Positions 2,928-61,799 of a stretch of DNA of 64,000 nucleotides are shown here, one piece after another. The translations under genes and the position numbers were made by a program. The notes under the pieces are model-generated. The model saw only the letters and a program-made list of their open reading frames with translations, ran no database searches and was not told the DNA's origin. Numbering within the stretch: the stretch's first letter is position 1; each line of letters opens with the position of its first letter. The stretch covers positions 1-64,000 of the forward strand of contig JANJGN010000052.1 in assembly GCA_026770705.1 (NCBI GenBank). The letters are read 5' to 3'. Source of the DNA: Isurus oxyrinchus (taxonomy: Eukaryota).

Positions 2928-3176
2928 TCAGTTATGCTCAAACCTGATCTGTGCGTATTCCATCTCCTCTTCCCTGTGGACAGACCCATCATCACTGGAC
3001 ACCCTCAAAACTTGGGGATTGGCGTAGAGAAACTCTTCAGGTTTGCCGGGGTTCCCAAGTCCAGCATCGCCTCCCACTGCATCTTCAGAGAGACCCCGGG
3101 GAGCTGGGGTCTCCCCCTCACTAGTTGTGTCTCTGGTTGTGTTCCGGGGCTCAGTAATCAGCACGTTCTGTTTACC
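2928..3176 (-). CDS. Gene A terminal cytoplasmic exon (proximal cassette; FLYANP, MEYAQI)
   Basis: ccgtag acceptor; GKQNVLITEP...EEFLYANPQV...EEMEYAQIRFEHN*; minus-strand AATAAA at 2396-2401. Confidence 0.8.
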   Translation of the reverse strand, partial: GKQNVLITEPRNTTRDTTSEGETPAPRGLSEDAVGGDAGLGNPGKPEEFLYANPQVLRVSSDDGSVHREEEMEYAQIRFEHN

Positions 3177-9100: not shown

Positions 9101-10491
9101 AGATCAAGAGGAGATGTTCAGCAATTAAAAGGGTTGTTCAGGGCAGTTAGAGAGAGAAAGTTCATCAAGTACGGAGATTGGAAACGAAGACCTGACAGCC
9201 TTGTCCTCACAACCATTGAAGGAGAAACTGAGAGCAAAAACAGAAAGGGAGAGGAAAAATTGGGTGTGTGGATAACGTGGACTGAGCGAGGATTGAAGAA
9301 AACTGGATTAAAAACAACACGATCCCAATGGCTCCACGGAGACCACGGAGACAACAAACAAACAAATGTATCTCCACACTCACATTCCACAGTGATGGTT
9401 ATGAACCCCTCCACTGCTCCATGTTCATTCTCTGCCACACACTGATAGTCTCCAGTGTCCCTGGATGTAACGTGAGGAATCACCAACCACAGCTCATTGT
9501 TGGAACTTGTTCTGTTCATTGGGACATTAAGATGTCGCCACGTCAGGTTAGAAGCTGGGAAGCTCTCGACAGAGCAGATTATCACTGCAGAATTCCCCTC
9601 AATTATATTGATCGATGAAGCGTTAATCATATCAAGAGAAGTAATTGATGGGTTCCGTGGTGCATCTAAATACAAATAAAGGTTTCATTGTGAGCAAACA
9701 CAGTGCACAGCAAGACTCCAGGTATCATCTCTCTCCATCTGGTGTCTATGTGCATGTCAAGGCTTCTTTCTCCATTATAAGTTTCTATGTCACCATTTGT
9801 AACAGACACTGCCAGTGTGTTCCTTTTTGCATATTCATGGGAAGTGGATGTATCTATCTAGACCAGCATTTATTACCCATCCCTAATTGCCCTTGAGGAG
9901 GTGGTGGTGAGTTATTCACCCCCACAGAATTCCCAGCCTCTGACCGGCTCCTGTAGCCACAGTATTTATGGCCGGTCCAGTTAGTTGTTTGGTTAACATC
10001 CCCCAGGATGTGGATCGTGGGGGATTCAGCGATGGGAAAGTGATTGAATATCAAGGTGAGATGGTTAGATTCTCTCTTGTTGGAGATGATCACTGCCTGG
10101 TACTTGTGTGGTGTGAACATTACTTGTCATTTCTCAGCCCAAGCTGAGTGTTGTTCAGCTCTTGCTGCGTGTGGATATGTAAACTGTCACGCTGTAATTA
10201 CAGCCTTCCACCAGAGGAGACACTGTCAGGCTAGAAGAAAAGAAAGTGTCTTTCACATGATCAGGATGTTCACGGAGATTTCACCATGGAGGAATTGCTT
10301 TGGAATAATGGGGTATTGGGTGATAAACCTACAATTCACTGTTCAGGAGGTTGCTCCATCCAATTCAGTGTCTTGATGATCTGGAGTTTACCTTCCTTCA
10401 ACACAGAATCAGAGCTGCTACCGAGACTCGAGTGCAGCACTGAGACAGGAGAGGGAGCTGACACGTGTGTGTGTATGTGTGTTTGTGTGTG

Positions 10492-10549
<58 letters not shown>

Positions 10550-13500
10550 GTTGAAGTTTGCAGTAACTCACGTTCCACAGTGATGGTTATGAACCCCTCC
10601 ACTGCTCCATGTTCATTCTCTGCCACACACAGATAGTCTCCAGTGTCCCTGGATGTAACGTGAGGAATCACCAACCACAGCTCATTGTTGGAACTTGTTC
10701 TGTTCATTGGGACATTAAGATGTCGCCACGTCAGGTTAGAAGCTGGGAAGCTCTCGACAGAGCAGATTATCACTGCAGAATTCCCCTCAATTATATTGAC
10801 CGATGAAGCGTTAATCATATCAAGAGAAGTAAATGAGAGATTCTGTGGAGCATCTAAGAACAAATCAAGTATTTAATGTGAGCAAGCACTGTGCACAGCA
10901 AGACTCCATGCATCATGTCTCTGTATCTGATGCCTGTGTGCATTTCTAGGCACCTTCCCTCAAGATAAGTTCCTATGTCACATTTACAATGGGCACTGCC
11001 TATGTAAACTGTCACACTGCAGGAGCATTCTCCCACCAGAGACCCTGCCCATCCGGATTTAAAGAAACTCCCTTTCACATCCTCAGGATGTCCCCAAGGG
11101 CTTGACAGGCAATGAATTATATTTAATCGATGGAGCACTGAGGGGTAAATCTACAATTCTCTGTTAAGGATTTTGCTCATCCAATTCAGGGTCTTGTTGA
11201 TCTGGAGTTTACCTTCCTTCAGCACAGAATCGGAGCTGACACCGAGACTCCAGTGCAGCACTGAGAGAGGAGAGGGACCTCACATGAGTGTATGTGTGTG
11301 TGTGTGTTTGTGTTTCTGCACAAGTNNNNNNNNNNNNNNNNNNNNNNNNNNNNNNNNNNNNNNNNNNNNNNNNNNNNNNNNNNNNNNNNNNNNNNNNNNN
11401 NNNNNNNNNNNNNNNNNNNNNNNNNNNNNNNNNNNNNNNNNNNNNNNNNNNNNNNNNNNNNNNNNNNNNNNNNNNNNNNNNNNNNNNNNNNNNNNNNNNN
11501 NNNNNNNNNNNNNNNNNNNNNNNNNNNNNNNNNNNNTGTGTGTTGTCTGTGTGCGCGTGTGCATGTGNNNNNNNNNNNNNNNNNNNNNNNNNNNNNNNNN
11601 NNNNNNNNNNNNNNNNNNNNNNNNNNNNNNNNNNNNNNNNNNNNNNNNNNNNNNNNNNNNNNNNNNNNNNNNNNNNNNNNNNNNNNNNNNNNNNNNNNNN
11701 NNNNNNNNNNNNNNNNNNNNNNNNNNNNNNNNNNNNNNNNNNNNNNNNGTGTGTGTCTGTTGGTGCGTGTGTGGTCTGTGTAACCTGTAAACCTAACCCT
11801 TCCACACTGATGGTCACGAACACCCCCCACTGCCAACAAATTTATCTCAGTAAGGAACATGGCACTGCCAACCCCGTCAATACCATCTTCTAAACGGGGG
11901 ATTGGGTAGGAATCTGGTTTTATTGCTGCATTAACCTTTCTGTAATGTATGCAGAATCTGGTTGGAAATGAAATACCTGCTCCTTTTTACCTCCCTCCCT
12001 ACGATGGTATCGTTTTAACATATTGATGTGTCACAGCCGATTCTTTATTCTACAATCTGGGGTGTGTATCAAATAATTTACTTGACCAACCCTCCTAATT
12101 ACCTTGTGGGGACCACTGAACCGCGCTTTCAGAGGCTCCCCCTGCCAAGGCAATGATACTAACACGTCATCCCCCTGGTTGAGATGTTCGGGTCACAGCT
12201 TGCCTGTCTACCCCATTCCTTCATCTCTGTTTGAGAAACTATAAGATGTTCTTGTGCCACTTTGGAGGCTCCCATGAGCCGTTCCTGAAACATGGACACA
12301 TCATCTGAAATAGAGGATTCATCCCTCTGTCCGGAATATCTTTCTTTGATGAATTTCAGACAGCCTCTTATCTCGTGTCCATAAGTTATTCCAAAAAGAC
12401 TAAAACCTGCCGATTCAGTTGGTGAATCTCGTGTGGGAAATGCAAGAAAATCCAGTCCTTTGTCCCAGTCATGGGGAGTTCATGACAATAGCTTCAATCA
12501 TTGTTTTGAGGGTTTGTTGGTCCCTCTCTAAAGATCCCCGTGTCTATGGATGATATGCTGTGGACTTTAACTGTTTTATACCCAAATTACTCATTATGTT
12601 CGGAAAATTTTAAGACATAGAGATGGAACCTTGATCTGACTGGATCTCCAGCGGTAATCCATAATGGGTAAAAAATTGGGTTAACTTCCCTATTACTACT
12701 TTAGCTGTAATTGTTCCTAAAGGGATGGTCTCTGGAAATCGAGTTGTCATATCCATCATAGTGAGGCCATACTGGAGTCCGGCTTTCATTTTCGATAATG
12801 GTCTAACACAGTCCACTAATGCTCGTATCCAATGGTAACGGACAATTAACTCACTGGAGGAGGGGAATCCACAAATATCCCCATCCTCAATGAACGGGGA
12901 GCCCAGCACATCAGGGCAAAAGATAAGGCTGAAGCATTTGCTACAACAATTATCCATTTCTGTCTGGCGTAAAAATAAGTCAGGAAATGGTGCTCAACCA
13001 GGGCTTACAAAAGAAATTAGGGATAGTATTAGATCCAGAGAGGAGACATAAAATTGCCAGGGGAAGCAGCAATGCTGAGGATTGGGAGCAGTTTAGAATT
13101 CAGCAAAAGTGGACAAAAAGATTGATCAAGAAGGGGAAAATGGAACATGGGAGTAAACTTGCAGGGAACGTAAAAACCGACTGTAAAAGCTTCTATAAAT
13201 ATGTGAAGAGAGAAAGATTAGCAGTGACCGATGTAGGTTCCTTGCAGTCAGAAATGGGGGAAATTCTAATGAGAAACAAAGAAATGGCAGAAGAACTGAA
13301 CATATATTTTGGTTCTGTCTTCACAAAAGAGGACACAAATAATTTCCCAGGAATGTTAGGGAACCAAGTGTCTAGTGAGAGGGAGGAATTGAAGATAATC
13401 AGGATTAGTTTTAAAAAATGGAGCTGGAGAAATTAATGGGTTAAAGGTTGAACAGTCCCCAGGGCCTGAAAATCTACATCCCAGAGACTAACGGAAGTGA

Positions 13501-16500
13501 CCCTGGAAATATTGGAAGCACTGGTGGTCATCCTCCAAAATTCTATAGGCTCTGGAGCAGTTCCTATAGATTGGAGGGTGGCAATTGTAACCCCACTATT
13601 TAAAATAGAAGGGAGAGAAAAAAACTGGGAATTACAGATCAGTTAGTCTAACATGGGGAAAACGCTAGAGCCTATTATATAAGGTGTGCTAACGGAACGC
13701 TTGGAAAGCATTAATGGGATTAGACAAAGTCAGCATGGGTTAATGAAAGGAAAATCATGCTTAACTAATCTACTGGAGATTTTGAGGATGTAACTTGTGG
13801 AATAGATAAGGGATAACCAGTGGATGTGGTGTTTTTAGATTTCAAGAAGGCTTTTGATAAGGTCCCACATAAGAGGCTAGTGGGCAACATTAAAGCTCAT
13901 GGGATTGGGGGTAATTTACTGACATGGATTGAGAATTGGTCGACAGACAGGAAACAGAGGGTCAGAATAAATTAGTCTTTATCTGAGTGGCAGGCGGTGA
14001 CTAGTGGTGTACCACAGGGATCCGTGCTTGGGACCTAACGATTCACGATATATTTAAATGACTTGGGTGAGGGAGCCAAGTGCAATATTTCCAGGTTTTC
14101 TGATGACACAACGCTGGGTAAGGGTGTGAGCTGTGAGGAGGATGCAAAGAGGCTTCAAGGCGATTTAGACAAGTTGTGTGTGTGGGCAAACATATGGCAG
14201 ATGATGTGGATGAATGTGACATTGTAGGCTTTGGTGTGAAAAACAGAAAGGCAGAGTATTATTTAAATGGTGATATAATGGGAAATGTGGATGTACAAAG
14301 GGATCTGGGTGTCCTTGTGCACTAGCCAATGAAAGTAAACAGGCAGGTGCAGCAAGTAATTCGGAAGGCAAATGGTATGTTGGCCTTCATTGCAAGAGGA
14401 TTTGTGTTCAGGAGTAGGGATGTCTCACTGCAGTTATACAAGGTCTTGGTGAGACTGCACATGGGGTACTACGTGCCGTTTTGGTCTCCCTCCCTAAAAA
14501 AGGATAGACTTGCCATCGAGAGAGTGCAGAGAAGGTTCTCTAGGCTGATACCAGGGGCGGCAGGACTGTCGTATGAGGAGAATTGGTACGACTGGGTCTG
14601 TATTCACTAGAGTTTAGAAGAATGAGAGGAGACCTGAATAAACGTAAGAAATTCTAACAGAGATAGACAGACTGGATGGAGGGAGGATGCATCCCTTGGT
14701 TGGGGAGTCTAAAACCAAGGGCGACAATCTCAGGATACAGGGCAGGCCATTTTGGACTGAGATAGGGAAACATTTCTTCACTGAGAGGGTGGTCAATCTG
14801 TGGAATTCTCCATCACAGAGGCTGTGGAGGCCGGGTCACTGAGTGTATTCAAGAAAGAAACTGATAAATATTTTGATATTAGGGGCATCAAAGGGTACGG
14901 AGAGAAAGCGGGAATAAGGCTTTGAGATAGAGGGTCAGCCTTGATCATATTGAATGGCGGAGAAGGCTTGAAGGGCTGAATGTCCTAATCCTGCTCCTAG
15001 TTTCTATGTACCTAGGTATCTATAGAACTATCTCTCTCCGTGTTCTATTCTCATGTGACCTTGAGTAACTGATGATAAATACTATCTATTTACATTGTTA
15101 ATATTAAACTTTTATACTACATCTCCCCCAAAATCTTTGACATCAATGAAGACAATATTTATATTATCCTATATTGTCTTTTAAGTTCAACCTTGGCCCC
15201 CTCTGCCTTATCAGGTAGGCATAAACAATCCCAAGGCTCAATACAGGAAGAGCTCTCCCTGGTCAATATCACTAATAAAAAAGGACCTGTTTTGTCTTCA
15301 ACCCAGTGATGTTTGTGGGATCTTGCTCTGCACATTGTATCCTATTACAGCTAATATAGAATCAAGGGTGTCAGTACTTACCTTGTACAGTTAGTACAAG
15401 GGTCCGCTCCGATGAAACAGATGGATATCTCACTCTGCAGCAGAGTGTGTGTCCGTGGTGTTTGAGTGATGGGATCAGGGTCAGAACAGAAGTATAGGTC
15501 AGAGTGACACCATGCTGAGTTACAGTGTTTGAGACTGATCCACGTACGTCAGTGGGAGTGTCCCAGGTTAAGACAGGTGCTGCTGTTCCATTGCACGTTG
15601 TGTTGAAGGTGCAGCTTACATCCACACGCTTTCCTGCAATAATTTCAGCAGGGAATATCATGGGTTTATCTGTGAAATCTAACAGACAGAGAATGGATCC
15701 TTTTAGAGAAATATAATGTGAAGCATCAGTTCAAATAGAAATCACAGTCCCACAAGAGAAAGCACTTTTACAAGGATGATATCAGAACTGAGAGGTTACA
15801 ATGATCAGGAAAGATTTTCTTGCTCTTTGGCAGTAGTGTTTCTGTCTCTCAGCTTAATACATGTTCACTCCGAGACATGTGAATTGAGAACACTGGATGA
15901 GAGAAGAGGCTCAGACCAGAGATTGGAGTTAAAAGCAGAATACTGCGGATGCTGGAAATCTGAAACAAAAACAAAAATTGCTGGAAAGACTCAGCAGGTC
16001 TGACAGTATCAGTGGAGAGGAAGACAGGGTTAACGTTTCGAGTCCGTATGACTCTTCATCAGACCAGAGGTTTGAGTTCACTGGCTTCTCATTTCCTCAG
16101 TGATCTGGGTGATTTATTACATTGTGGTTTGTTGGATCTTGCTGTGCACAAACTGCCTGCTGTGTTTAACATCTGTGACTACAATTCAGGAATAATTTCA
16201 TTGGCTGTGAAGGGATTTGGATCCTCCTGAGGTGGTAAATTGCGCTGCAGAAATGTACATCTTTCTTTTATCGATACGTCAGACTTTTAAACAGGACAGG
16301 AGAGATTGATGGGAGTGGATAACCTGATAATACAGTTAATGCTTTTCATCATTGATATTAAAGTGAGTATTAGACGTTGCTTTAGGACTGAACTGGAAGC
16401 TATTGAGAATCAGACAGTGTGTTATAATAAGCTGTGTTTTGTGTTAATATGTAAACGTCACAGTTTGTGTTATTTCCCATTGAGTGTTGAATGTGAATTG

Positions 16501-17797
16501 TTGAGTAATTATAACACAGCACTTACCAGAAACATGAAGCTGGGTTACAGGGTAATAGTTATAGCGCGGACCATTGTCAAATTCTATTCTGAAAAAATAA
16601 GGTCCTGCATCTTCCCGTCTGATGTTGTTTATAATCAGGGAACAGTCGCCATCTTTCAGGTCTCCAGACAGCCGGGTCCGATTGTGGAACCGTGGTAACT
16701 CGTGACTGTGATCTTTGGAGTGAAAGGCAATGGGAGCCCAGGGAATCTGTTTCTCATTATTAAACCAGACTCCACCTCGCGGTTGGTTTTCCAAATGTGC
16801 TGGATAACTGTAATGACATGGAATCTGTACACACGAACCTTCCTGCGCTGTCACCTCTCGTGGAGTGTCACCTTTCCACTCTTGTGACAGTCCAACTGAG
16901 GAGAGAAATATCAAATATTTAATTCTGGATGGTTTGTAGATCCACTAGACTCGATATCCACCCCCTCCATCTCTGGAGCACAGTGGCTGCAGTGTGGACC
17001 ATCTACAGGACACACAAGGAACTCCCCAAGGTTTCACAATGGAGGGAAGAGAATCCTGGACACAGGAGTGGACAACTTCATTCTACATTGGCTCATGGTC
17101 CTCAGGACCCTGTTTAGTGAAGCCAGTCTTCCACCCAACACAGTGTCTACAAGATACACAGGGAAACTGTGTAAATATCTCATCTCTTTAAACTGACTGC
17201 TTTGGCTTCGGTTTAACTTTCAGTTATTTTACTTCCTTATTGTGGTTGCTATGGTGAAACTGTGCAGGAAGTGCGAGGGCTGGACTCTCTGTCTATTCTC
17301 ACTGCAGCTGTGATGTGGCCGTGGTGATTCTCAGTAAAATGAAACCCTCTGAGCTCCTCCATCCCCGAGGTTTAGGGAGTGAATTCCAGAGCTCAGGCCC
17401 CAGGCAGCTGAAGGCCCGGCCGCCAGTATTGGAGTGATGGGAATCGAGGGATGGTCAAGAGGCCGGAATTGGAGTAACACAGAGATCTGGGACGTTGGTT
17501 GGGAGAGTTGCAGGAGGTTACAGAGATAAGGACGCAGTGTGAGGCAATGGATGCATTTGAACAAAGAGATGTGTATTTTAAGTTTGAGATGTTGTAGGAC
17601 CAGGAGTCAGATAGTTTAGGGATGATGGGTGAATGGGACTTGGTGTGAGTTTGTACACTGGCTCACTGCTGAATCAGTTCCCAATCACAGCTCAATAAGA
17701 ATGTTCTTTTACAAAGACTATTCACCATAAATCTGTCCGAGCTGACAATGGTATTACCTTGGAGAAGTGACAGGAGGAAGTAAGATTTCCCGATCAT
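2928..17797 (-). CDS. Gene A: Siglec-like type I membrane receptor, inhibitory-type (leader, V-set, 5 C2-set, TM, Tyr-motif tail), about 755 aa, 10 coding exons
   Basis: Exons 17797-17758, 16895-16527, 15678-15382, 10853-10572, 9665-9384, 7511-7236, 6279-5986, 5064-4968, 4244-4163 and 3176-2928 are joined by GT-AG introns with compatible phases and sum to 2268 nt (756 codons) with no internal stop. Confidence 0.85.
4163..4244 (-). CDS. Gene A cytoplasmic exon 1 (proximal cassette)
   Basis: (K)RKTAMEERVSGTSDIALTPSPLSVKHQ; 82 nt, phase 2 to 0; ttgcag acceptor, CAG|gtacag donor. Confidence 0.8.
4968..5064 (-). CDS. Gene A transmembrane exon (uncharged)
   Basis: GRDSSKWTVGLFTAGIMLSVFLAGIFIFICVRK; ttttacag acceptor, AA|gtaagt donor; not in the ORF track. 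Confidence 0.88.
5495..5640. repeat. 37-bp AT-rich tandem repeat, about 4 copies
   Basis: gtaatctatgtaacatttatatataatatttatcaat. Confidence 0.85.
5986..6279 (-). CDS. Gene A membrane-proximal Ig exon (MAG domain-5-like)
   Basis: YKPEISQQSECTRRSEGVTCICVANSNPPGDLTW...SCSVQNPHG; the SxC-x8-CxC-xxxSNP pattern is typical of the last Ig domain of MAG and many Siglecs; 294 nt. Confidence 0.85.
6591..6885. repeat. 37-bp tandem repeat inside an L2-like fragment (6355-7110)
   Basis: ctccctatctctgtaacctcctccagaccctacaacc, about 8 copies. Confidence 0.9.
7236..7511 (-). CDS. Gene A C2-set exon (CD22/sialoadhesin-type YSP...EGSNITLTCSSESVPP)
   Basis: Ig C-W-C pattern (LTC, YTW, DAGFYC); 276 nt; ttccag acceptor, gtaag donor. 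Confidence 0.9.
7835..9058 (+). mobile_element. Penelope-like retroelement 3' fragment (GIY-YIG endonuclease)
   Basis: NIIYCIHCSQCGLLYIGDTKHRLGDR...HFN...EEQHLIFR..TLQP..LN; ends in a ctgaaga-gagtc/gactc terminal motif. Confidence 0.85.
9384..9665 (-). CDS. Gene A C2/I-set stalk exon (copy 2)
   Basis: Near-identical to 10572-10853; 282 nt, AG/GT flanks. Confidence 0.9.
10465..10546. repeat. (TG)n microsatellite next to a stalk-exon donor
   Basis: Direct inspection; the N runs at 11326-11748 and 59477-59661 also lie in TG-rich tracts. Confidence 0.9.
10572..10853 (-). CDS. Gene A C2/I-set stalk exon (copy 1)
   Basis: DAPQNLS...IICSVESFPASNLTW...DTGDYLCVAENEHG; 282 nt, AG/GT flanks. Confidence 0.9.
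11830..12830 (-). mobile_element. Gypsy/Ty3 LTR retrotransposon integrase fragment (decayed)
   Basis: VDCVRPL...DMTTRFPETIPL...FTHYGLPLEIQSDQGS integrase core. Confidence 0.8.
12975..15025 (+). mobile_element. CR1-type LINE, 5'-truncated and decayed
   Basis: KSFYKYVK, AEELNIYFGSVFTKED, RT motifs, LYKVLVRLH...ERVQRRF, and a CR1 3' end with a short-repeat tail. Confidence 0.88.
15382..15678 (-). CDS. Gene A C2-set domain 2 exon
   Basis: DFTDKP...VSCTFNTTCNG...LTW...CRVRYP; the extra Cys fits the Siglec V-C2 interdomain disulfide; 297 nt, phase 1-1. Confidence 0.9.
16527..16895 (-). CDS. Gene A V-set sialic-acid-binding-type Ig exon
   Basis: Siglec hallmarks: N-terminal Trp, GSCVQIPC, GDCSL (B-E disulfide), F strand YFFR with the essential Arg instead of YYC. 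ctcag acceptor, G|gtaagt donor, 369 nt. Confidence 0.93.
17758..17797 (-). CDS. Gene A leader exon (MIGKSYFLLSLLQ)
   Basis: ggacaATG with A at -3; 40 nt; CAAG|gtaat phase-1 donor; joins VGLSQ-EW of the V exon to complete a signal peptide. Confidence 0.85.
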
Positions 17798-20030: not shown

Positions 20031-20744
20031 TCTGAGTGTGGTCTGCACTGCCCTAAGTGCATTCTAGGCACTGCCCAAGATTCCGCCTGATGTCCGTGTA
20101 ACAACAACATCATGTACACGTCGAGAATATTTCTCACTGTGTCTGTGCAGCAAGACAGCTTTGGAATGGCACCACCACTGGCAGGAGTGTGCAACTACAA
20201 TGTGACATGTTTACATTGGAAGTTTCTATAATAAGGATGGGCACAGGAATTTATATAATAGAGAAAATGTGACAACAAGAAGCTTTTCTTTGAGGCAAGA
20301 ATTTGGCAGCAAAATAAGAATTTTAATCTATAAATATTTACAGAACAGGCTGAGCATTTTAATCACTTGTGTTAATCAATGTAATTTTATTCATAACCCA
20401 AATGCTTCTTACAATCTATCGCAGCATGAAAAAGGTGCAGCATTCAGAAAGCACATTCCAATCAGAGAACAGAGTTTAGCAACGTCACATTTCTGTTCAT
20501 TCCTATTCGACCATGTTGGCTGCACACAGCCAGACAATGCCGTGGTTATGATGTGTCCACACAGCAGGACTGGGGAGCACCAGGTATAAGGAAAAGTTTC
20601 AGCTTGCTGAGGAGAAGAAGGACAATCTCTCGTTCCAGGTTTCTCTCCGTACATTAAGAAGCAGGCATGCCGATGTTTCATTGCACTCTGTCTGCTGATG
20701 GGAGTCCGCTTGGAAATTGCTGTTTGTGCTGATGGAAAGAATAA

Positions 20745-21345
20745 GCTTTTCATAAATCGAGGGATTGAGTACAAACACAGGGAGGTTATGCTGAACATTT
20801 ATAAAGCTCTGGTTAGGTCACAACTAGAGTATTGTGTCCAGTTCTGGTCTCCTCACTTTGGGAAGGAAGTGAGGGTCCTTGAGAGGGTGGGGAGGAGATT
20901 GAGCAGAATGGGTCCAGGGATGAGGGATTTTAGCGACAAGGTTGGGTTGGAGAAGCTGGGGTTGTTCTCCTTGGAGCAAAGGAGATTGAGGGGGATCTGA
21001 TCGAGGTGTACAAGATGATGATGGGTTTAGATACGGTAGACAAAGAGAAGCTGTTGCCATTAGCTGATGGTACAAGGACTGGGGGACACAGATTGAAGGT
21101 TTTGGGCAGAGGGGGATGTGAGGAGGAACTTTTTTACACAGCGAGTGGTAATGAGCTGGAACTCGCTGCCTACGAGGATGGTGGAAGCGGAGACAATGAA
21201 CGATTTCAAAAGGAAATTGGATGGACACTTGAGGAGAAATAAACTTGAAGGGATACGGGGATAGAACGGGGGAATGGGACTGACTGGATTGCTTTACAGA
21301 GAGACAGCATGGAGTAGATGGGCCAAATGCCGTTCTTCTGTTCCA
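20745..21345 (+). mobile_element. CR1 3' fragment in the 3' UTR of gene B (copy at 40625-41225)
   Basis: YKALVRSQLEYCVQFWSPH...LERV...LGLFSLEQRRLRG. Confidence 0.8.
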
Positions 21346-21371
21346 TGATGAGATTGTTGCTGTCCAAATCT

Positions 21372-21511
21372 TTAAACAGTCTGTCGACTTCCTTTCACTG
21401 TTTGTCTCTCCCAGACACAGACTCCAGCGATAGTGATAACCACAGCCACAAGGAATATCACAGCTCGTATTCCCAGGATCAGGATCACGTGCAGAATCTC
21501 TCCTCCACTGT
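21372..21511 (-). CDS. Gene B TM/terminal exon with intramembrane Arg
   Basis: ttctctag acceptor; phase-1 reading (Y)SGGEILHVILILGIRAVIFLVAVVITIAGVCVWERQTVKGSRQTV*; Arg codon at 21465-21467; candidate AATAAA at 20386-20391. Confidence 0.85.
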
Positions 21512-24500
21512 CTAGAGAACACACAGAAAGAAATCATCACTGACTCTCCGCTTTCAATCTCTCACTCTGGCTGAACAATCAAGCTTCATATCACTGCAAC
21601 ATTTGCTGTAATATTGACCCATCCACTGGGATTCAATGTGGAATGAATGTTTTCATTGTAAACACTCTAAGAGTGGACAATCGGAACTTTCCCCTTAGCG
21701 TGGAACATTGGTGAGAATGGATCATTGTGCTGTTGGACTCCCTGTCCAATGTTTCTCTCCATCGCTGTGTACAGGATTGTGCTGTAGAAAATTCTGGAAA
21801 CGTTTAGTGCAGGGTGGAAATCCATCTCGGACGCATCTGCGAATCGGACAGGATCGAGATGGACTTCCTCACGGACTTACACCCCCCGCTTAATAAACAG
21901 TTCCAATCTTTACCCAGAGAGAGGGGAGAATGTGGAACTCGCTCCCACTGGGAGTGGCTGAGGTGAACAGTATCGATGTATTTAAGGGGCAGGAGGCTCG
22001 GTAACCAGAGGGACACAGATTGACGAACCGGAGGGGGAGATGAGGAGAATTTGTTTTGACAGAGCGAGTTGTTGTGATCTGGAAGATTCTGCCTGAAAGT
22101 GCGGTGGAAGCAGATTCAACAGGAACTTTCAAAAGGGAAATTGGATAAACACTTGAAGGAAGAAGATGGCGGCAAAGTGGAGTGGTGGTTAGTGGATCTG
22201 ATTGGATAGAACATTGAAAGATCTGGCACAGGCACAATGGGCTGAATGGCCTCCTCCTGTGCTGTATCATTCTCCACTTCCATGATCTCTCCCCCAGTTA
22301 GTAACCACTCCAGATCCCTCTTGAAGGCAACAGAGAGACAGCAACCACCACACCCACTGACAGCACATTCCCGAGGATCCCTACTCTCTGGGAAAAGATG
22401 AACTCCCCAACATCCAGCCTATTCCTGCTTCCTGGAGAGTGTAAACCCTTCCCAGAGCGTGGATGAACCTTTCAATAAACTGTATTATCAAATCTACTGT
22501 TTGATATATAAGTTAATTTCGATGAACTTACAGCATGTCTAGCAAATTGTGAAGTGAAGTTGGCTGAAAAGCAGGGAGGTGCAAGCTTAAGCACCACAGT
22601 GCCACCACTGGTGGGAGGACGTAAAGACAGTGTGACGTTTACATAGGATGCCCCCATTATAAACAGGGTCATTGGACATGATGGCAAAACTGAACACTGG
22701 AAAGGTGAGAAAATGAAGTAAGCTCTTCACTAACAGGAAATCCCTTCCTAAACTTCCTTATTTCTCCCTTTCTCTCAGATACACAAAAAATTTGACACAG
22801 GGCATTATAAGGAGGAGTTAGGACAGGCAAGAGTTAGGGAATAGGAAGCTTCTTAAAGGAGGAGAGAGATACATGGAGAGGTGGGGAGTATCAGTTGGAA
22901 TCTTTGTGCATGTGAGTTTCTGGAATAGACTTCGTAATTTGGATATTCTTCGATAAATATGAATGGGAACACATATCCCGGAATCCAGGAGAACTCTCCA
23001 GTGCAGTACTGGGGGAGGTCAGGTAACTCACAGGGAAGTGTGTACTACTGTGTTAGTGTGTGAGTGTGTCTTTCTGTGTGCTCATGAGTGTGGGATTGTG
23101 TGTGTGCATGCACTTTGGGTCTGTACATTTGTGAGTGCTTGTGTGTGTGTGTGTGGGAGTGCATCTGAGTATATGTGTTCGGAGATGAGAGAAATATTAA
23201 AGTCTGTGTAACTCACATTCCACAGTAATGGTTATGAACCCCTCCACTGCTCCATGTTCATTCTCTGCCACACACTGATATTCTCCAGTATCCCTGGATG
23301 TAACGTGAGGAATCACCAACCACAGCTCATTGTTGGAACTTGTTCTGTTCATTGGGACATTAAGATGTCGCCACATCAGGTTAGAAGCTGGGAAGCTCTC
23401 GACAGAGCAGATTATCTCTGCAGAATTCCCCTCAATTATATTGATCGATGAAGCGTTAATCATATCTGGAGAAGTAATTGAGAGATTCCGTGGTGCGTCT
23501 AAAAACAAATACAGATCAGTTAACTTACACTGACTGTGAAGCACTTTGAAAGACACTGAGAACGTGAAAGGTGTGATGTCAATGTAGGTTCTTTCACCAC
23601 ATAGCCCGTAATCCAGGCAGACACTTCAGTTCAGTATTGAGGGCGTGCTGCACTGTCAGAGGGTCAGTACTGAGGGAGTGCTGCACTGCCAGAGGTTCAG
23701 TACTGAGGGAGTGCTGCACTGTCAGAGGGTCAGTCCTGAGGGAGTGCTGCACTGTAGGAGGGACAGTACTGTGGGAGCGCTGCACTGTAGGAGGGTTACT
23801 GCTGAGATAAAACTGCACAGTCAGAGCGTCAGTTCTGATTGACCAGTGCAATGTTGGAGGAGCACTACTGAGGGATCATTACACTATTAGAGAGACAGTA
23901 ATGAGGGAGTGCTGCACTGTAGAAGGGTCAGTGCTGAGGAGGCAAACATGCTGTTATGTGTGTACTATAGGCCTCCTGTGATAATGTGGAGTGCCAGGTA
24001 CCTTTAAGAGAATACAAGTGGATAAACCATGTGACAGTACTGACCAATCACTGGACAGTGTGGGCCACTGGTTAACTGTAAGTCTGGAGCTGGAGGTGGT
24101 TGTGGGAGCAGGCAAGGATTTAGTGCTCTGCCCTCTGTTACAATAAATAATCAGCTTGTTCTAATGTCGGTCTCTCTTGGTTATTGATAGCGAGCATCAG
24201 CTAAGAATAACTCAACAGGTCTGGCAGCATCGGGGGAGAAGAAAAGAGTTGATGTTTCGAGTCCTCATGACCCTTCGACAGAACTGAGGTCATGAGGACT
24301 CGAACCGTCAACACTTTTCTTCTCCGCCGATGCTGCCAGACCTGCTGAGTTTTTCCAGGTAATTCTGTTTTTGTTTTGGATTTCCAGCATCCACAGTTTT
24401 TTTGTTTTTATCAACTAACAAGTGTATATGAAGGAATGCAATTCGAGTTTACTCAACCAGTGAACTCATAGACTCAAGATATAAAACCAACAAACAGTCA

Positions 24501-27500
24501 GGGAGAGATGGACAATCCAACATGTGATCACATTTCAGAGATGTGTAAGAATAATAAAGCAGTAATACTCAGGGATTTTAACTACCCAAATATTAACTGG
24601 GACAGCTTTAGTGAGCAAGGTAGGGAGGGAGAAAAATTCTGAAGTTGCATCCAGGAGAAGATTTTTAGTCTGTGCATAGAAAGCTCAACAAGGGAGGGGA
24701 CAGTTCTGGACCTAATATATGGAAAAGCGCCGGGGAAGTTGGAAAGCGTATCAGTAGGGGAGATGGTGACTGTAACTCAATTGGATTTAGGATAGTTATG
24801 GAGAAGGATAAGTTTGTGCTGGGAATAAAAATTCTAAACTGGGGAAAGGCTAATTTTACTAAGATGAGATATGATTTGGCCCAAGTGGACTGGGAGAAGC
24901 TCTTTGCAGATAAAACTGTGTCAGAGCAGTGGGAGGCATTCAAGGAGGGAATAGCGAGAGTACAGAGCAGATATCTTCCTGTAAAGACAAAGAGGGAGAC
25001 CAAGTCTGGAGAACCCTGGAAGACAAGGAACATAAAGGTTAGGATTGAGAAAAAAGAGAAGCTTATGGCAGATACTGAGGGCTCAATACAGCAGAGTCCC
25101 TAGAGGAGTATAAATAGTGCAGAGGGGAACTGAAAAAGGACATTAGGAAAGATAAGAGAGTGCATGAGAAAGCACTGGTGTGTAGAATAAAGCAAAACCC
25201 AGAGGGATTTTTTAAATATGTAAAGAGCAGCAGAATAACTCGGGAAAGAGTGGGGCTGATTAGGGACCATCGAGGTAATGTGTGTGTGGACCTGGAAGAC
25301 GTGGGTACAGTCCTCAATGAATACTTTGCATCAGTCTTCACTATGGAAAAGGATGATGCAGGTATAACATCAGGGTGGAGGACAGTGAAATATGAGAGGA
25401 AATTAACACAGAGAGAGGAGGTACTAGTGGGTTTAGCGGCCTGAAAAGTGGATAAATCCACAAGTCCGAATGAGATGAATCCAAAGCTGTTGAGGGAGGA
25501 AAGGGAAGAGATATCAGGGGCCCTGGCAGTAATTTTCAAATCCTCTCTGGCCACAGGTGACGTGCCAGAGGACTGGAGGATGGCTAATGTTGTCCCATTA
25601 TTAAAAAAGGGAGGAAGGGATAGATCAGGAAATTACAGGCCAGTCAGTCTAACCTCGGTGGTGGGGAAGTTACTAGGAAGACTTCTGAAGGACAGAATGA
25701 ATCTGCACTGGGAGAGACAAGGATTAATCTGGGATATTCAGCTGGATTTGTTAAGGGAAGGTCATGTTTGACAAACCTGATCAAATCTTTTGAGGAGGTA
25801 ACCAGGAGTGTTGATGAGAGTAATGCCTTTGATGTGGTCGACATGGGCTGAGGAAGGCTTTTGATAAGGTGCCTCTTGGCAGAGAGGCCAAGAAAGTAAG
25901 AGCCCATGGGATCCAAGGCAAAGTGGCACGTTGGATCCAATATTGGCTGAGGCAGGAAGCAGAGGGTGATGGTGGAGGGATGTTTCTGTGACTGGATGTC
26001 TGTTTCCAGTGGGGTTCCACAGGGCTCAGTGCTGGGGCACTTGCTGTTTGAGGTGTATATAAATGAATTGGACGTAAATATAGGGGGGATGATCACGACG
26101 CAAATGGACTTCAACCTGGAAAAGTGTGAGGTGATGCACTTAGGGAGGGAGTTGCTGACCAGAATGGACATGATGGGCTAAATGGCCTCCTTCTGTCCTG
26201 TAAGTGTCTATGAGTCTATGAGTCCAAGATGCACTGTCGGAGAGTCAGTAGTAAGGATGTACTGCCTGTCAGGGGTCACTTTTTCCCAGTTAAACACCAA
26301 TGGTTTGTTTATAAACAAAGTGCAGGATGTGGGAGCTTGCTGTGCACATTTGATACTATTCCAGCTAATGTAGAATGAAGGGTGTTTGTACTTACGTAGC
26401 ACAGTTAGTACGAGGGTCCGCTCCGATGAAACAGATGGATATCTCACTCTGCAGCTGAGAGTGTGTCCGTGGTGTTTGAGTGATGGGATCAGGGTCAGAA
26501 CAGAAGTATAGGTCAGAGTGACACCATGCTGAGTTACAGTGTTTGAGACTGATCCAGGTACGTCAGTGGGAGTGTCCCAGGTTAAGACTGTTCCATTGCA
26601 CGTTGTGTTGAAGGTGCAGCTTACATCCACACGCTTTCCTGCAATAATTTCAGCAGGGAATATCGTGGGTTTATCTGTGAAATCTAACAGACAGAGAATG
26701 GATCCTTTTAGAGAAATATAACGTGAAGCATCAGTTCAAATAGAAGTCACAGTCCCACAAGAGAAAGCACTTTTACAAGGATGATATCAGAACTGAGAGG
26801 TTACAATGATCATTAAAGAATTGTCTCTTTTTACACTTGTTGAATCTCTGTCACTCAGATTAATACACTCTCACTCAGTGACCCTTGATTTGACCAGACT
26901 GGGTGAGGGTGGAGGAACAGCTCACAGCTCGGGGAGAACAGACTCAGCATTTGGAAAAGGATATCGAGACACTGGAGAGGGTGGTAAAAAGCTTCACAAG
27001 GATGATCTCAGCAATGTGAGGCTTTACCTATCAGGAGAGGATGAACAGGCTGGGTCTCTGTTCTCTTGAACAGAGAAGGTTGAGGGGTGACCTCATTTGA
27101 CCTTTGAAGTAATGAAAGGTTTTGATCGAGTAGACATGGAGAGAGTGTTTCCACTCCTCACAATGAACAAAACCAGAGGCTGACAATATAAGATCGTCAC
27201 TAATAAATCCAATGGGGAATTCAGGAGGAACTTCTTTACCCAGAGAGTGGGGAGAATGTGTGCTTCAAGAATCACTTCATTGACTGTGAATCGATTTAGT
27301 ATCGTCCTGAGGTGGTGAAAGGCGCTATGGAAATGCGAGAATTGCTTTTGTATTTTGAAATCAGGTTTCCAAGGATGAGATGGGAACTGAGAGGTTACAA
27401 CAATCAGCAGCAACTTTCCTATTTTCAAACTTGGTGAGGAATGTGTCACTGAGCTGAATACACTTTCACTCCCAGACCCTTGAATTGCCAACACTGGGGT

Positions 27501-30500
27501 GTGGGTGATGGAGCAGCCCACAGCTCATGGAACCCTGGCTCATCATTCTCTCAGAGATCTGGGTCACTGATCCCATTGCTCTCTGTGGGAGCTTCCTGTG
27601 TACAAACTCACTGCCACGTTAGACAGTGACTATACTTCAAGAATTTCTTCATTGTCTGTGAAATGATTTGAAGTTTGCTGAGGTGGTGTAAGGCGCTATA
27701 GGAATGCACATCCTTCTTTTGTCAAATTGTTAGACATTTAAAAAGCATGAGGTAGACTGATGGGAGTGGATAACCTGATAACATTGATGGACACAGGCAA
27801 TACATTTAATCATTGATATTAAAGTGAGTATTAGAGGTTGCTTTAGGACTGAACTGGAAGTTATCACCCGGTTATTGAGAATCAGACAGTGTGTTATAAT
27901 AAGCTGTGTTTTGTGTTAATATGTAAACATCACAGTTTGTGTTATTTCCCATTGAGTGTTGAATGTGAATTGTTGAGTAATTATAACACAGCACTTACCA
28001 GAAACGTGAAGCTGGGTTACAGGGTAATAGTTATGGCTCGGACCATTGTCAAATTCTATTCTGAAAAAATAAGGTCCTGCATCTTCCCGTCTGATGTTGT
28101 TTATAATCAGGGAACAGTCGCCATCTTTCAGGTCTCCAGACAGCCGGGTCCGATGGTGGAACCGTGGTAACTCATGACTGTGATCCTTGGAGTGAAAGGC
28201 AATGGGAGCCCAGGGAATCTGTTTCTCGTCATTAAACCAGACTCCACCTCGCGGTTGGTTTTCCAGACACGATGGATAACTGTAATGACATGGAATCTGT
28301 GCACACGAACCTTCCTGCGCTGTCACCTCTCGTGGAGTGTCACTTTTCCACTCATGTGACAGTGCAACTGGGGAGAGAAATCTCAATATTTATCTCTGGA
28401 TGGTTTGTGGATCCACTAGACTCAAAATTTACAGATGAGGCTGAATTGGGGGGATGGTCAATACTGAGGAGAATGGCAACAAATTATTTTGGCAGGAAGA
28501 ATAGAAAAACAGAATATTATTTAAATGGAGACAGGCTGCAGAATGCAGTACAGAGGGATCTGGGTGTCCTTGTACATGAATCACAGAAAGTCAGCATTCA
28601 GGAACACCACGGAATGAGGAAGGCAAGTGGAATGTTGGCCTTTTTTGCAAAGGGATGGAGTATAAAAGGAGGGAAGTCTTGCAACAGCTGCACAGGGTGT
28701 TAGTGAGATTGTAACAGGATCATTGTGTACAGGCAGTTCAGAGAAGCTTCACTGGGCTGATTCCTGGGATTAAAGGGTTTGTCCTGTGAGGAAATGTTGA
28801 GCAGGTTGGGCCTGTATCCATTGGAGTTTAGAAGAATGAGGGGTGACCTTATTGAAACATATCCGATTCCGAGGGGGCTTGACAGGGTGGATGCTGGGAG
28901 GATGTTTCCCCGTCGTGGGGGAATCTAGAACCAGGGAGCACAGTTTCGGAATGAGGGCTCCCCCATTTAAGACTGAGATGAGGAGGAATTTCCTCTCTCA
29001 GAGGGGCGCTAGCCTGTGGAATTCTCTTCCCCAGAGAGCAGTGGAGGCTGGGCCATTGAATAGACTCAAGGCTGAGTGAGGCAGGTTTTTGATCGACAAG
29101 GGGGTCAAGGGTTTGGGGGACAGGCAGGAAAATGGAGTTAAGGCCACAACCAGATCAGCAAGAGCAGGCTCGAGGGGCTGAATGGCCTGCTCCTGTCCCT
29201 ATTTCTTATGTTCCTACATTCTTACCTTCTTAAAATATTAAAGCTGCAGAATAAACATGCAAGTGACTGACCCGCTCGACCCACCTTCCATCTGGGGGTC
29301 CCATGGGGAGGACCCTTCCTGAGCCAGATCCACCAGCCAACATGGTCTGGATCCGAGCACAGGAGACACGGGGGGGAGTGACTAACAGGCTCCTTGTGAC
29401 AGGCCCCGTCTGTCCAATGGCTGGCTTTCAGCTGCCAAGGCCAGAGTGGTCCTTGCTAAAACCGGCTCAGGACAGGCCAGGACCCCTGTGCAGACTCCCT
29501 CCAGCGCTGCAGCCTCTGTACAAACCCCTCATGCGCTTGTGGTGAGACACAAACAAGGCTGCACATTACCGAGGAGAATCCCCTCTACGGACTAAGGGGC
29601 TGACTCATCACCCTAAACTCGGCAAATGAGGAGGCTCTCGCTCGGTATCGGGGCTTGGCATTCGCTCAGTAAAAATAATCAAATGACATTTTGGTCAGAA
29701 ATCTAAGGAGGTTGTACATTCCCTCTAAAATAAGACTCGATCTGGGGTCGAGGGTCAAAGGACAACAACTTTGTTTACACAACAACTTTAACATGACAAA
29801 TCACCCCAAGGTGCTACACAGGAGCGTCATAAAACAAAGAATGTCACCCAGACACGTGTGGAGATATTAGCGACAGCTGACCAGAAGAGTTCGGTGTTAT
29901 GGAGAATCTTAAAAGGGGGATGAAATGGATAGTGAGAGAGAGAGAGATAGAGATAGAGAGAGAGAGAGATAGAGAGAGTGAGAGAGAGTGATGGAGAGGG
30001 GTTGAGGCCGGGTATTACAGAGCTCGGGCCCCAGGCACCTGAAGGCATGGTCGCCGATATTGCAGTGATGGGATCGGGGGATGGTAAAGAGGCTGGAATT
30101 GGATGAGCACAGAGACCTCAGAGGGTTGGAGGGGCTGGAGGAGGTTACAGAGATAGGGAGGGTTGTAGTGATTGGAGGAGTTACAGAGATAGGGAGGGTT
30201 GTAGAGGCTGGAAAATTTAAGAGAGATTGGGAGAGTGTAGGGTATGGAGGAGTTCGCAGAGCTAGGGAGGGTTGTAGTGGCTGGAGGAGGTTGCAGAGTT
30301 TGGTAGGTTTTTTGTGCAGGATGAATTTACAGATATAGGGAAGCAGCAGAGGCTTGAAGAGGTTACAGAGAATGGGATGGTTGTAGGTACTGGAGGAGGA
30401 CGAGGAGATTACAGAGATAGTGAGGAAACAAAGATGAAAATTGTGACATTGAGACTTTGCTTGACCAAGAGCCAGTCTCGGTCATCGAGCAGAGCGGGTG

Positions 30501-33500
30501 ATAAGGGAATGGGACTTGGTGTGAGTAAGGACATGGTCAGCAGTTTTGGATGGCCTCAACTTTATGGAGTGTAGAGCGTGTGTTGGAACAGTTGAGTCTG
30601 GAGGTAATGAAGGCGTGGATGAGGGTTTCAGCAGCAGATGAGCTGAGACAGGGTGATGTCGTGCGATGTTACGGAGGTGGAAATAGACAGTGTTAGTGAG
30701 GGCGCAGATATGAGGCCGGAAGCTCATCTCAGGATCAAATGGGACAACAAAGCTGTGAACAGATTGGCTTCAATCTCAGAGAGCTGTCAGGGAGAGGAAT
30801 GGAGTTGGTAGCGAGGGAACAGAGTTTGGAGCGGGGAATGAAGGCAATGGCTTCAGTCTTTCCAATATTTAATTGGAGGGAATTTCTGCCCATCCAGTAC
30901 TGGACGTCGGATAAGCAGCCTGATAATTTAGCAGCAGTGGAGGAGTCGAGAGAGGTGGTGGTGAGGTAGAGCTGGGGATCCTCAGTGGACAGGTGAAAAC
31001 TAACACTGTTCAGATGATGCTGCAAAGCCATTGCAAGTGATTCTCTGACTACGATGAGATGGATAAGAATGGAGCCAGGGGAGAGCAGTCCCACCCAGCT
31101 GGACGACAGTGGAGAGGTGTTGGAGGAGGATGGTGTGGTCGAGCATGTCAAAGGCTGCAGACAGATCGAGAAGGACGAGGAGGGAAAGTTGACCTTTGTC
31201 ACAGTCACACAGGATGCCATTTGTGACCTTGATAAGAGCTGTTTCAGCACAGTGGCTGGGGTGGGAACCTGATTGGAGGGATTCAAACATGGAGATCCGG
31301 GAAAGATGGGAACGGATTCGGGAGATGGAAACACGTTCAAGGACTTTGGAGGGGAAAGAGAGGCTGGAGATGGGACGGGGGTTTACACGGACAGTGTGAG
31401 GGGTGGAAGGTGTAGTGGGGAGGAGACACTTCACTCAGGGGGGAGGTGTCATCACCCCTCAGCTCGGTTTACGTTACAGCTATGATGTGGATCCAATCAC
31501 ACACAATAAGCTCATGGATCTGGGAGCAGAAATAGACAAATCATTAAAAATAGTGACGCTGGTTAACACGGCCAAAAAACAAGCAAATCAAACACTATTA
31601 TTTCCCATTGAGTGTTGGATGTGAATTGTTGAGTAATTATAACACAGCACTTACCAGAAACATGAAGCTGGGTTTCAGGACGGTCGTTGTATCTATTCCT
31701 GCTGTCAAAATCTGTTCTGAATAAATAATATCCTGCATCTTCCCATCTGACATTGTTTATAATCAGGGAACAGTCACCATCTTTCAGGTCTCCAGACAGC
31801 CGGGTCCGATGGTGGAACTGTGGTAACTCGCGATTATGATCCTTGGAGTGAAAGGCTATAGACCGTTCATTCCATGTTTCCCAATTCCTTCTCATATACC
31901 AGATTCCGACTGGTGATCTCGCTACTAAATATGATGGATAACTGTAATTACATGGAATCTGTACACACGAACCTTCCTGCGCTGTCACCTCTCGTGGAGT
32001 GTTGACTTTCCACACTTGTGATAGTCCAACTACGGAGAGAAATATCAATATTTAACTCTGAATGTTTTCTCAATCCACTATACTCAATATCCACCCCCTC
32101 CATCACTGGGGCACAGTGGCTGCAGTCTGGATAATCCACAGGTCACACAATGAATGCCCCAAGGTTTTACCACAGATCGAAGAGAATTCTGGACACAGGA
32201 GTGGACAAGTTCATTCTACATTGGCTCATGGCCCTCAGGAACCTATTTAGTGAAGTCAGTCTGCCACCCAACACAGTGTTTACAAGACGCACTGATTGAA
32301 GTGAGTTCACTGCTGATTTACAATGTAGGACAATGGATTTAGAGCCTTCAGAATTCCCCCATTATCACCATCATGAATCATGAATTGGCCTAGCTGTCCT
32401 AGATCCTCAGTGTCTAAGGCAGTGGTTCCTATTGTGATGTAAGTATAATAATTTTCATAATATTTTATAGTATATTGTGAAGTAGGTTTATGGGGGTACG
32501 CATGATGGGTCTGCATGTGATTTAAGTACATTTGGAGTTAATTAGATTGGAAGTTTAAAATGATCAAAAGGAGCTAGGTGCTTGACATGCTATTGAGGAA
32601 ACATGGATGCTGCTTAGCATGGAAGGTATGAAGAGAATTTGCATTTTTATTTCAATGAAGGGGTTGTTGGATTTCAAAGGAATCTTAGCTTGTTTACAAC
32701 TAGCCAGATAAGCAAGACTAATGAATGTGCTTATTTTTCTCAAAGGCTCCTGGCAATATGGGCACCACGAAAGAAATTGTTATGAGGAAGAGACAGTTTC
32801 AAAAACATTTGGAACAATAGAATTTTCATGTTACAAAGAGAGAAATATATATCTATCAGGGAGAATGAAAGGCTATGTGTCAGAATGCCATGTAAGATCT
32901 AACATGAGTGTGTGATATAGTCTTAATGAAACCTCTAGCATTTGTGCACAAGCCTGCTATCCAACAGAACTGAAGTTGGGGAAAAGCCACTTGGAATTCC
33001 TCTGTGCAGGGTATTGCTATTGTATTGTGTTAACTTGCTGAGTTGTTTTAAATCTAACATCTATTTTTAGTCTGTTGCCTTAAAGGGAGTGTAACTGGGA
33101 GTCAGGTTAATTTGGAATTTTAAGAATTATTATAGTGGTAATTGTAGAGTTATGTATGTGCTTGAAATCTTTTATTTTGAGAGCAAGAATTTTAATTTAA
33201 TTTTCAAATCTCTAAAGGTCTTGGTGTAATTATTGCTTCTGAATTCAGTGCACACATCTCATAATAAATACAAATTGCAAAATCATTATGATAGTGTGAC
33301 CACCTTTCTCTCATGGACTTGGTCTGCCTGGCACACATCACCTGTCAAGTGATAACACTGTTGTAATATGCCTTTCAGGGACAGCAGCATGACATCACTC
33401 GAGGGGAAGTGTGTCATGTGATTTTAGAACTGGGGATAGCTTAAGTACGTTCTATGTGTATTTGTGTGTGTTAGGGTTTAAGGTCTATCTTTAAGTTCAA

Positions 33501-41249: not shown

Positions 41250-41389
41250 TCAAACAGTCTGTCGACTTCCTTTCACTGTTTGTTCCTCCCAGACACAGAC
41301 TCCAGCGATAGTGATAACCACAGCCACAAGGAATATCACAGCTCGTATTCCCAGGATCAGGATCACGTGCAGAATCTCTCCTCCACTGT
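41250..41389 (-). pseudogene. Gene C TM-Arg exon (intact frame)
   Basis: SGGEILHVILILGIRAVIFLVAVVITIAGVCVWEEQTVKGSRQTV*. Confidence 0.8.
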
Positions 41390-43073: not shown

Positions 43074-43211
43074 ATTCCACAGTGATGGTTATGAATCCCT
43101 CCACTGCTCCATGTTCATTCTCTGCCACACACTGATAGTCTCCAGTGTCCCTGGATGTAACGTGAGGAATCACCAACCACAGCTCATTGTTGGAACTTGT
43201 TCTGTTCATTG
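43074..43211 (-). pseudogene. Truncated C2 stalk exon remnant
   Basis: Only the MNRTSSNNELW...ITVE half remains; the upstream half is replaced by about 200 bp of unrelated sequence. Confidence 0.8.
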
Positions 43212-43549
43212 TGATATTCAGATATCAGGGCAGGACTCAGCAAGACAGTTCGCATGTTTACCAACAGAAAGTGAACAATAATTTATATTTAAAGGGAAGA
43301 GAGTGCTGATTGGTTGGCAAGTGGTCTCTGATAGGTGGAGGTGTTGCCATGGAAAATAATGTGTGTGAGATGTAAAGTTTAGACAGCTTGTCTCTTCATT
43401 CAGCAACAATCAAATAAAGATCAGTTAACTTCTATGGACTGTGAAGCACTTTGAGAGGCATGAGAATGTGGATACTGAGAACGGGCTGCACTGTCAGAGG
43501 GTCAGCGCTGAGGGAGTGCTGATGTAGAATGAAAGGTGTATGTAATTAC

Positions 43550-43845
43550 CTTGCACAGTTAGTACGAGGGTCCGCTCCGATGAAACAGATGGATATCTCA
43601 CTCTGCAGCTGAGAGTGTGTCCGTGGTGTTTGAGTGATGGGATCAGGGTCAGAACAGAAGTACAGGTCAGAGTGACACCATGCTGAGTTACAGTGTTTGA
43701 GACTGATCCAGGTACGTCAGTGGGAGTGTCCCAGGTTAAGACAGGTGCTGCTGTTCCATTGCACGTTGTGTTGAAGGTGCAGCTTACATCCACACGCTTT
43801 CCTGCAATAATTTCACAGGGAATATTGTGGGTTTATCTGTGAAAT
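43550..43845 (-). pseudogene. Gene C C2 domain-2-type exon, frameshifted
   Basis: 296 nt versus 297; tttcacaggg versus tttcagcaggg. Confidence 0.8.
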
Positions 43846-61795: not shown

Positions 61796-61799
61796 GATA

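Follow-up and report, generated by a model that had tools for sequence, protein, structure and literature searches.

A transmembrane exon with a predicted intramembrane arginine in a shark Siglec-like gene and its counterparts on SLAM-family receptors

The Siglec-like gene cluster and the terminal exon of gene B

The window, by which we mean the whole 64,000-nucleotide stretch of Isurus oxyrinchus contig JANJGN010000052.1 that was analysed, contains a tandem cluster of Siglec-like genes, every one of them on the minus strand. Gene B has the layout leader-V-V-C2-I-TM (TM, transmembrane), with canonical splice sites that are in phase 1 throughout. Its leader exon (38027..38066), located by its match to the N-terminus of P0051, encodes the signal peptide and has a phase-1 GT donor. 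It is followed by two V-set exons, V1 (31655..32029) and V2 (27999..28367), a C2-set exon (26396..26683), an I-set Ig exon (23217..23498), and a terminal coding exon (21372..21511) that we refer to as the Arg-TM exon. The first canonical candidate polyadenylation hexamer (20386..20391) is about 1 kb past the stop codon. Pfam searches assign V-set and Ig_CD22 to both V exons, C2-set_2 to the C2 exon, and I-set to the last Ig exon.

A close homologue, P0003, has CD33 as its best PDB match (E 1e-26), with MAG and Siglec-5, -8 and -10 also matched, and its F-strand Arg aligns with the YFFR motif of CD33. Both V exons of gene B have the same F-strand Arg together with three Cys, and the aligned residue is one we take to be the essential sialic-acid-binding Arg of Siglecs. 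Sialoglycan binding by the outer domain of gene B is uncertain because V1 has an Asp at the position of the G-strand Tyr of V2, and therefore lacks the aromatic residue there. With Siglec-type V-set domains followed by C2-set and I-set domains and one TM segment, gene B is, as judged from its exons, an intact shark Siglec-like receptor gene. The closest named proteins among the matches listed are from Carcharodon and Cetorhinus.

Gene A (2928..17797) comprises a leader, V, C2 and four further Ig exons, an uncharged 97-nt TM exon (5064-4968) and a tail with tyrosine motifs, and is the likely inhibitory partner. Its cytoplasmic exon pair is present twice in tandem (4244-2928 and about 1780-1, minus strand); the first copy terminates in a stop and its tyrosine motifs are non-consensus (near-consensus), a consensus ITIM is found in the second, which extends past the window start, and alternative tails are possible. 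Gene D has an uncharged, A-type TM exon of 97 nt (57410..57506) and, at 56040-55950 and 54930-54810 on the minus strand, candidate cytoplasmic exons; these encode three tyrosine motifs, and the third fits the ITIM consensus. Pseudogene C (41250..49293) is a tandem duplicate of B with frameshifted V1 (377 nt) and C2 (296 nt) exons, a stop in V2, and a partial I-set exon. An extra leader exon (51591-51552, minus strand) lies 2.3 kb upstream of the pseudogene C leader, with no intervening V exon. B and C each have two tandem V-set exons, and a motif count gives 4-7 V repeats in the related models P0010, P0011, P0012 and P0013; such tandem V exons could encode domains stacked one on another, or ligand-binding heads among which splicing chooses. 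Across the cluster, near leaders and in introns, there is a 33-bp minisatellite (18600-20060, 38870-39900, 60180-61800, 62920-63870 and other positions), which could promote unequal crossing-over.

The Arg-TM exon of gene B is 140 nt long and was delimited from its splice site, its frame, and homologous NCBI models of other sharks. The acceptor, a pyrimidine tract and TAG, is directly 5' of 21511, with a second AG 4 nt downstream, and the stop codon is at 21374-21372. The I-set exon has a phase-1 GT donor at 23217 that splices onto this exon, and V1, V2, C2, I and TM give one open reading across five exons with zero internal stops. Read in phase 1, the exon encodes a stalk and TM helix of 10 mostly hydrophobic residues, an Arg (codon at 21465..21467), and 18 hydrophobic residues, a hydrophobic stretch of 29 residues with the single Arg inside it, followed by a 12-residue cytoplasmic tail without Tyr. 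The ORF list gives solely a 245-aa ORF here (20824..21561), which is in another frame. The earlier note had proposed that the ORF track is misframed at this position, that the exon reads in phase 1 to the peptide quoted there, and that the tail is 12 residues long and lacks Tyr, and the acceptor, the donor, and the stop-free translation bear out all of this; the exon is real and correctly framed. Pfam and PDB searches with the exon gave 0 matches, and the ESM Atlas returned hypothetical proteins with a top score of 0.80, which is uninformative.

The TM exons of A and D are related to each other, with none of 500 shuffles reaching the observed score. In comparisons of the Arg-TM exon with those of A and D, 104 and 100 of 500 shuffles reach the score, and no relation is detected at the DNA level, in agreement with what had been claimed. 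Homology of the Arg-TM exon to the A and D exons was rejected, with no signal by DNA shuffles or by profile. The copy in pseudogene C (41250..41389) is intact, as had also been noted, being open and identical at 137 of 140 nt (3 differences), but it does not serve as a sign of selection. Its 97.9% identity is about that of the neutral B/C background, for which three blocks give 96.0, 96.6 and 97.4% and two more give 81 and 86%. With flanks of similar conservation, survival of the exon in the pseudogene is not evidence of selection, and that argument was rejected.

Homologues of the Arg-TM exon on Siglec, SLAM and CD22-type ectodomains

A word-index search with the Arg-TM segment returned 9 proteins out of 79 candidates, and an HMMER scan over 1.84 billion representatives, using a single 45-residue query that reaches only to about 65% identity, gave 10 matches, one of which (P0130) was a repeat artefact and was dropped prior to counting. 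The segment is in frame in 20 of 153 fetched proteins, and the Arg is present in all 20; all of these homologues are predicted gene models. The 17 for which the species is known come from six species in three galeomorph shark orders (Carcharodon carcharias, Scyliorhinus torazame, S. canicula, Mustelus asterias, Chiloscyllium punctatum and Hemiscyllium ocellatum), and NCBI models of several sharks already include the exon, under generic names. The segment is internal in P0132, which is probably a chimeric model and is counted among the 20 although not among the terminal tails; the tail is short and without Tyr in all 19 homologues in which the segment is terminal. At the junction with the upstream exon the codon is made of one upstream base and the first two bases of the Arg-TM exon, so that D, Y or N is expected, and 13 of 14 Siglec-type models checked have one of these residues, matching the phase-1 acceptor prediction.

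At least seven Arg-TM carriers are among the best 120 of 123 V-domain matches. None of the 43 ray, Heptranchias and Pristiophorus models among the V-domain matches listed has the segment, which is weak evidence of absence because annotation can miss or misframe the exon. There are no named non-shark relatives among the 10 HMMER matches, and no mammalian protein was matched in that scan, with its reach of about 65% identity, or in the PDB search. Among 16 distinct Arg-TM cores, eight of 31 columns are fixed, seven besides the Arg, and the Arg is not singled out by conservation because the surrounding residues are equally invariant. Identity between orders is 23-25 of 31 for Arg-TM as against 21-24 of 31 for the uncharged TMs, and by these comparisons the exon is conserved as a working TM exon and not exceptionally so. 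Three further Siglec models (P0104, P0107 and P0113, two of them from rays) have short tails with a different, uncharged TM, and no Arg-TM was seen in the ray proteins examined. Of 101 shark and ray Siglec models with a TM, 11, mostly long-tailed ones, have an acidic residue inside the TM helix (P0047, P0048, P0050, P0053-P0055, P0074, P0075, P0083, P0084 and P0105).

Four shark proteins with SLAM ectodomains also end in Arg-TM (P0129, P0131, P0133 and P0134). In three of the four compared, the TM core is identical to that of gene B at 19-20 of 31 positions (61-65%) without gaps, and the ectodomains are 50-72% identical to that of an ordinary galeomorph SLAM protein, P0135, resembling Siglecs only weakly, at a generic-Ig level (best E 2e-4). 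The S. canicula SLAM carrier is not a fused gene model, since the Arg-TM Siglecs and the Arg-TM SLAM gene of this species are on genome sequences of different lengths (165,189,515 and 163,470,629 bases, respectively). The Arg-TM segment is absent from the other 18 SLAM matches, or from 19 if P0139, whose end is in the other frame, is counted; four of the other SLAM matches have ITSM tails. Nearly the same exon is also present in six further models with CD22/sialoadhesin-type ectodomains, four of them from C. punctatum, and the V domains of the two that align are 31-34% identical to V2 of gene B. Mis-joined models are possible in this CD22-type group because at least one is on a genome sequence of the same length as that carrying CD33-like genes. 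As far as these models show, the Arg-TM exon is not Siglec-specific, a point that had been overlooked in the earlier note, and it would be a separate module that is not derived from the adjoining Siglec TM exon. As both carcharhiniform and orectolobiform sharks have Siglec and SLAM versions, we infer that the cross-family sharing predates the split of these orders.

A SLAM origin of the exon is only hinted at by the sequence comparisons. HHalign gives a probability of 44% for the Arg-TM profile against ordinary shark SLAM TMs and 0.6-2% against four Siglec TM classes. In pairwise shuffle tests, 13 of 28 comparisons against ordinary SLAM TMs and 6 of 40 against Siglec TMs come out at p<0.05; as the comparisons are not independent, this too is no more than a hint. 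One of 14 branches is starred in a tree of 17 TM segments, with support of 86/85 for the split between SLAM and Siglec versions, and the tree gives no direction of transfer because it has no outgroup. One scenario, which we put forward tentatively and regard as somewhat doubtful, is a portable galeomorph activation cassette, in which a SLAM TM exon moved into a Siglec cluster on another chromosome and then to CD22-type genes in bamboo sharks, giving rise to Siglecs coupled to FcRγ long before, and separately from, the DAP12-coupled ones of primates.

Predicted position of the arginine, proposed pairing with gene A, and probable adaptor coupling

The placement of the Arg was estimated with a position-dependent insertion-energy model, the parameters of which are approximate values of a published scale. 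In the best windows of 19-25 residues, the gene B Arg is at position 5-7 from the extracellular end, and windows that include it hold 0.98 of the weight, with a mean depth of 0.23 from the outside. The five homologues that were modelled have Arg-window weights of 0.91-1.00 and depths of 0.14-0.28, and in three SLAM carriers the Arg is at modelled position 1-7, with more polar residues upstream. This rough model thus predicts a basic residue within the gene B helix, in its outer quarter, and agrees with the earlier proposal that the Arg is intramembrane. The 19 residues after the Arg score -0.5 kcal/mol alone, which is slightly favourable, and the Arg could for this reason be at the membrane interface.

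The neighbouring gene A has a near-identical ligand-binding domain. V2 of gene B matches the V exon of A at 352 of 369 nt (95.4%) and its counterpart in the duplicate C at 90.2%; by the C2 exons, in contrast, B is closer to C (98.6 vs 97.2%). Of the V-exon sites, 29 place A and B together, against 9 for B plus C and 7 for A plus C (29/38, p=0.002). The pattern is compatible with gene conversion between A and B, such as has been described for Siglec-11/16 (PMC5701461, in the sections available), and divergence or replacement of the V exon of C could give the same site pattern. The first copy of the gene A tail, with its non-consensus motifs, counts against the paired reading, and the second has the consensus ITIM. 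From its sequence, gene B looks like one half of an activating/inhibitory pair, a shark version of the paired Siglecs.

The anatomy of gene B supports an adaptor-coupled activating receptor, given the short Tyr-less tail, the Arg in all 20 carriers, its predicted intrahelical place, and the near-identical neighbour with tyrosine motifs. That part of the earlier proposal stands; FcRγ, DAP12 and DAP10, which had been offered side by side, are not equally likely. Sharks possess FcRγ-, DAP12- and DAP10-type adaptors. We think it probable that gene B encodes an activating Siglec that couples to FcRγ/ζ and is the activating partner in a paired set. Within the bilayer, a dimeric ITAM adaptor, in the likeliest case FcRγ (or CD3ζ), would offer its two Asp to the Arg; clustering by ligand would lead to Syk-family signalling from the complex, and this signalling would oppose that of A- and D-type receptors with their own tyrosine motifs. 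The choice of FcRγ/ζ is suggested by an Arg within the N-terminal quarter of the helix in a type I protein, as in the reported FcRγ partners. In the available sections of Feng et al. (PMC1440944), the Arg of FcRγ partners is in the N-terminal segment, with that of FcαRI at position 3, type I DAP12 partners have a central Lys whose replacement by Arg lowers assembly to 15%, and NKG2D, a type II protein, is the only partner described for DAP10. A 2026 review (PMC13107469) agrees, in its accessible part, that this Arg position goes with FcRγ/ζ, and what is available of PMC8198044 gives the general rule only. The order FcRγ/ζ, then DAP12, with DAP10 least likely, is what we infer from this analogy. 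No statement on shark FcRγ or DAP12 was found in the full-text literature searched, including the accessible part of one elephant shark supplement file (PMC3964593).

There is a minor but genuine chance that gene B is activating and yet signals through DAP12 or DAP10 in place of FcRγ/ζ. Mammalian Siglec-14 has a TM Arg through which it pairs with DAP12, and its signalling via DAP12 is what makes this adaptor the runner-up. Human Siglecs 14, 15 and 16 all use DAP12 (PMC13358205, in the text available), Arg-TM lacks the NxxR motif found in known anchors that bind FcRγ, which counts against the FcRγ reading, and if the full 29-residue stretch spans the membrane then the Arg is the 11th residue and nearer the centre. 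Set against these points are the modelled positions near the outer end in gene B and in the three SLAM carriers, the preference of DAP12 for Lys in type I proteins, and the restriction of DAP10, as described, to a type II partner. It is unlikely that the Arg instead snorkels at the outer interface without any adaptor, and that gene B acts as a tail-less receptor with a decoy, adhesion or capture role, competing with A for ligand. The favourable score of the residues past the Arg, 18 of which are hydrophobic, would allow this, as would an Arg that is no more invariant than its neighbours, but windows containing the Arg dominate in all six modelled sequences, and the Arg is kept over unrelated ectodomain families with a short tail wherever the segment is terminal, a kept Arg with a short tail being the pattern of activating receptors.

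We consider it very improbable that the exon is not used in the TM frame, either because the acceptor 4 nt downstream leads into the Cys-rich 245-aa frame, giving a secreted form, or because gene B is unexpressed. The second AG is there, the alternative frame is open for 245 codons in B, and a SLAM model of Heterodontus francisci, P0139, ends in that frame (0 of 2000 shuffles reach the score). There are, however, 20 models in the TM frame against this one, the long ORF is just 142 aa in pseudogene C, and the stop codons of B and C differ synonymously. Back-reading of the P0139 peptide to the TM frame allows the gene B residue at 23 of 35 positions, and the remainder of the helix allows mostly hydrophobic residues or Thr. 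Arg is allowed at the Arg position, yet the protein sequence alone cannot prove it. Read in the TM frame, the last 36 residues of P0139 would also include another basic residue, two positions ahead of the Arg.

Coupling of a basic TM residue to an ITAM adaptor is a textbook principle; what is new here is the shark occurrence and one anchor exon common to Siglec and SLAM families. No account of shark activating Siglecs or of an Arg-TM exon was found in the full-text literature searched, which covers few subscription journals, and a term search for the word 'shark' found nothing in the available text of the Siglec papers PMC13358205, PMC6288428 and PMC7226832. If the FcRγ/ζ-coupled reading is right, cartilaginous fish have paired activating and inhibitory Siglecs, assembled with a borrowed anchor exon that another receptor family also carries, and this would be a second, apparently independent, case of cross-family TM sharing besides that in Xenopus. 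It would illustrate the making of new activating immune receptors and predict Siglec signalling by FcRγ instead of DAP12, and the short exon, which annotation can overlook or put in the wrong frame, would be usable for counting the activating receptors of shark genomes.

Comparison with known receptor systems

Gene B and its neighbour resemble the primate Siglec-5/14 and Siglec-11/16 pairs in having near-identical V-set domains in neighbouring genes, one of which has a tyrosine-motif tail while its partner combines a short tail with a basic TM residue, and in showing signs of gene conversion. They differ in that gene B is from a shark and has two V domains, that its anchor exon has no relation to the inhibitory TM exon and also occurs in SLAM genes, and that the position of its Arg predicts FcRγ/ζ and not DAP12. 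Siglec-15 is a single conserved gene, and it has a Lys in place of an Arg. It is likewise an activating Siglec with a basic TM residue and is conserved from fish to mammals (PMC7226832, in the part available), although the ectodomain of P0003 matches it more weakly than CD33 (E 8e-11 vs 1e-26).

Macaque activating KIRs bind FcRγ and not DAP12, and are thought to be recombinants that gained an Arg-bearing TM/tail region (PMC8102735, in its accessible sections). The likeness is in the movement of such a region onto another ectodomain; the difference is that recombination took place inside one family, not across families.

The nearest parallel to an anchor on several families is the NxxR-type TM, carried by LILRA, NKp46, GPVI, FcαR and OSCAR and, in Xenopus, by ILR, FCRL (XFL) and CD2/SLAM receptors. 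Its use across LRC, FCRL and CD2/SLAM receptors in Xenopus is described in the available portions of PMC4536121 and PMC6557307, and those of PMC2413239 report that it mediates FcRγ association and that XFL2 requires FcRγ for surface expression. As described there, NxxR-type TMs have an Arg near the outer end and a short tail, as does Arg-TM, and one TM exon type is found over several unrelated Ig families, SLAM included. They often have an acidic residue directly past the helix as well; a Glu is at +19 from the Arg in 12 of 16 Arg-TM cores, which as a single residue is weak evidence. Arg-TM differs in having Leu and not Asn at -3 in all 16 distinct cores, in lacking the DYT start (a feature noted in PMC6557307), and in occurring on Siglec ectodomains, which are not listed among NxxR carriers in the passages available. 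Membership of Arg-TM in the NxxR class was rejected by motif, on the Leu at -3 and the missing DYT; a distant relationship below the roughly 65% identity that the 45-residue query reaches would have escaped detection, and Arg-TM may still work like an NxxR-type TM.
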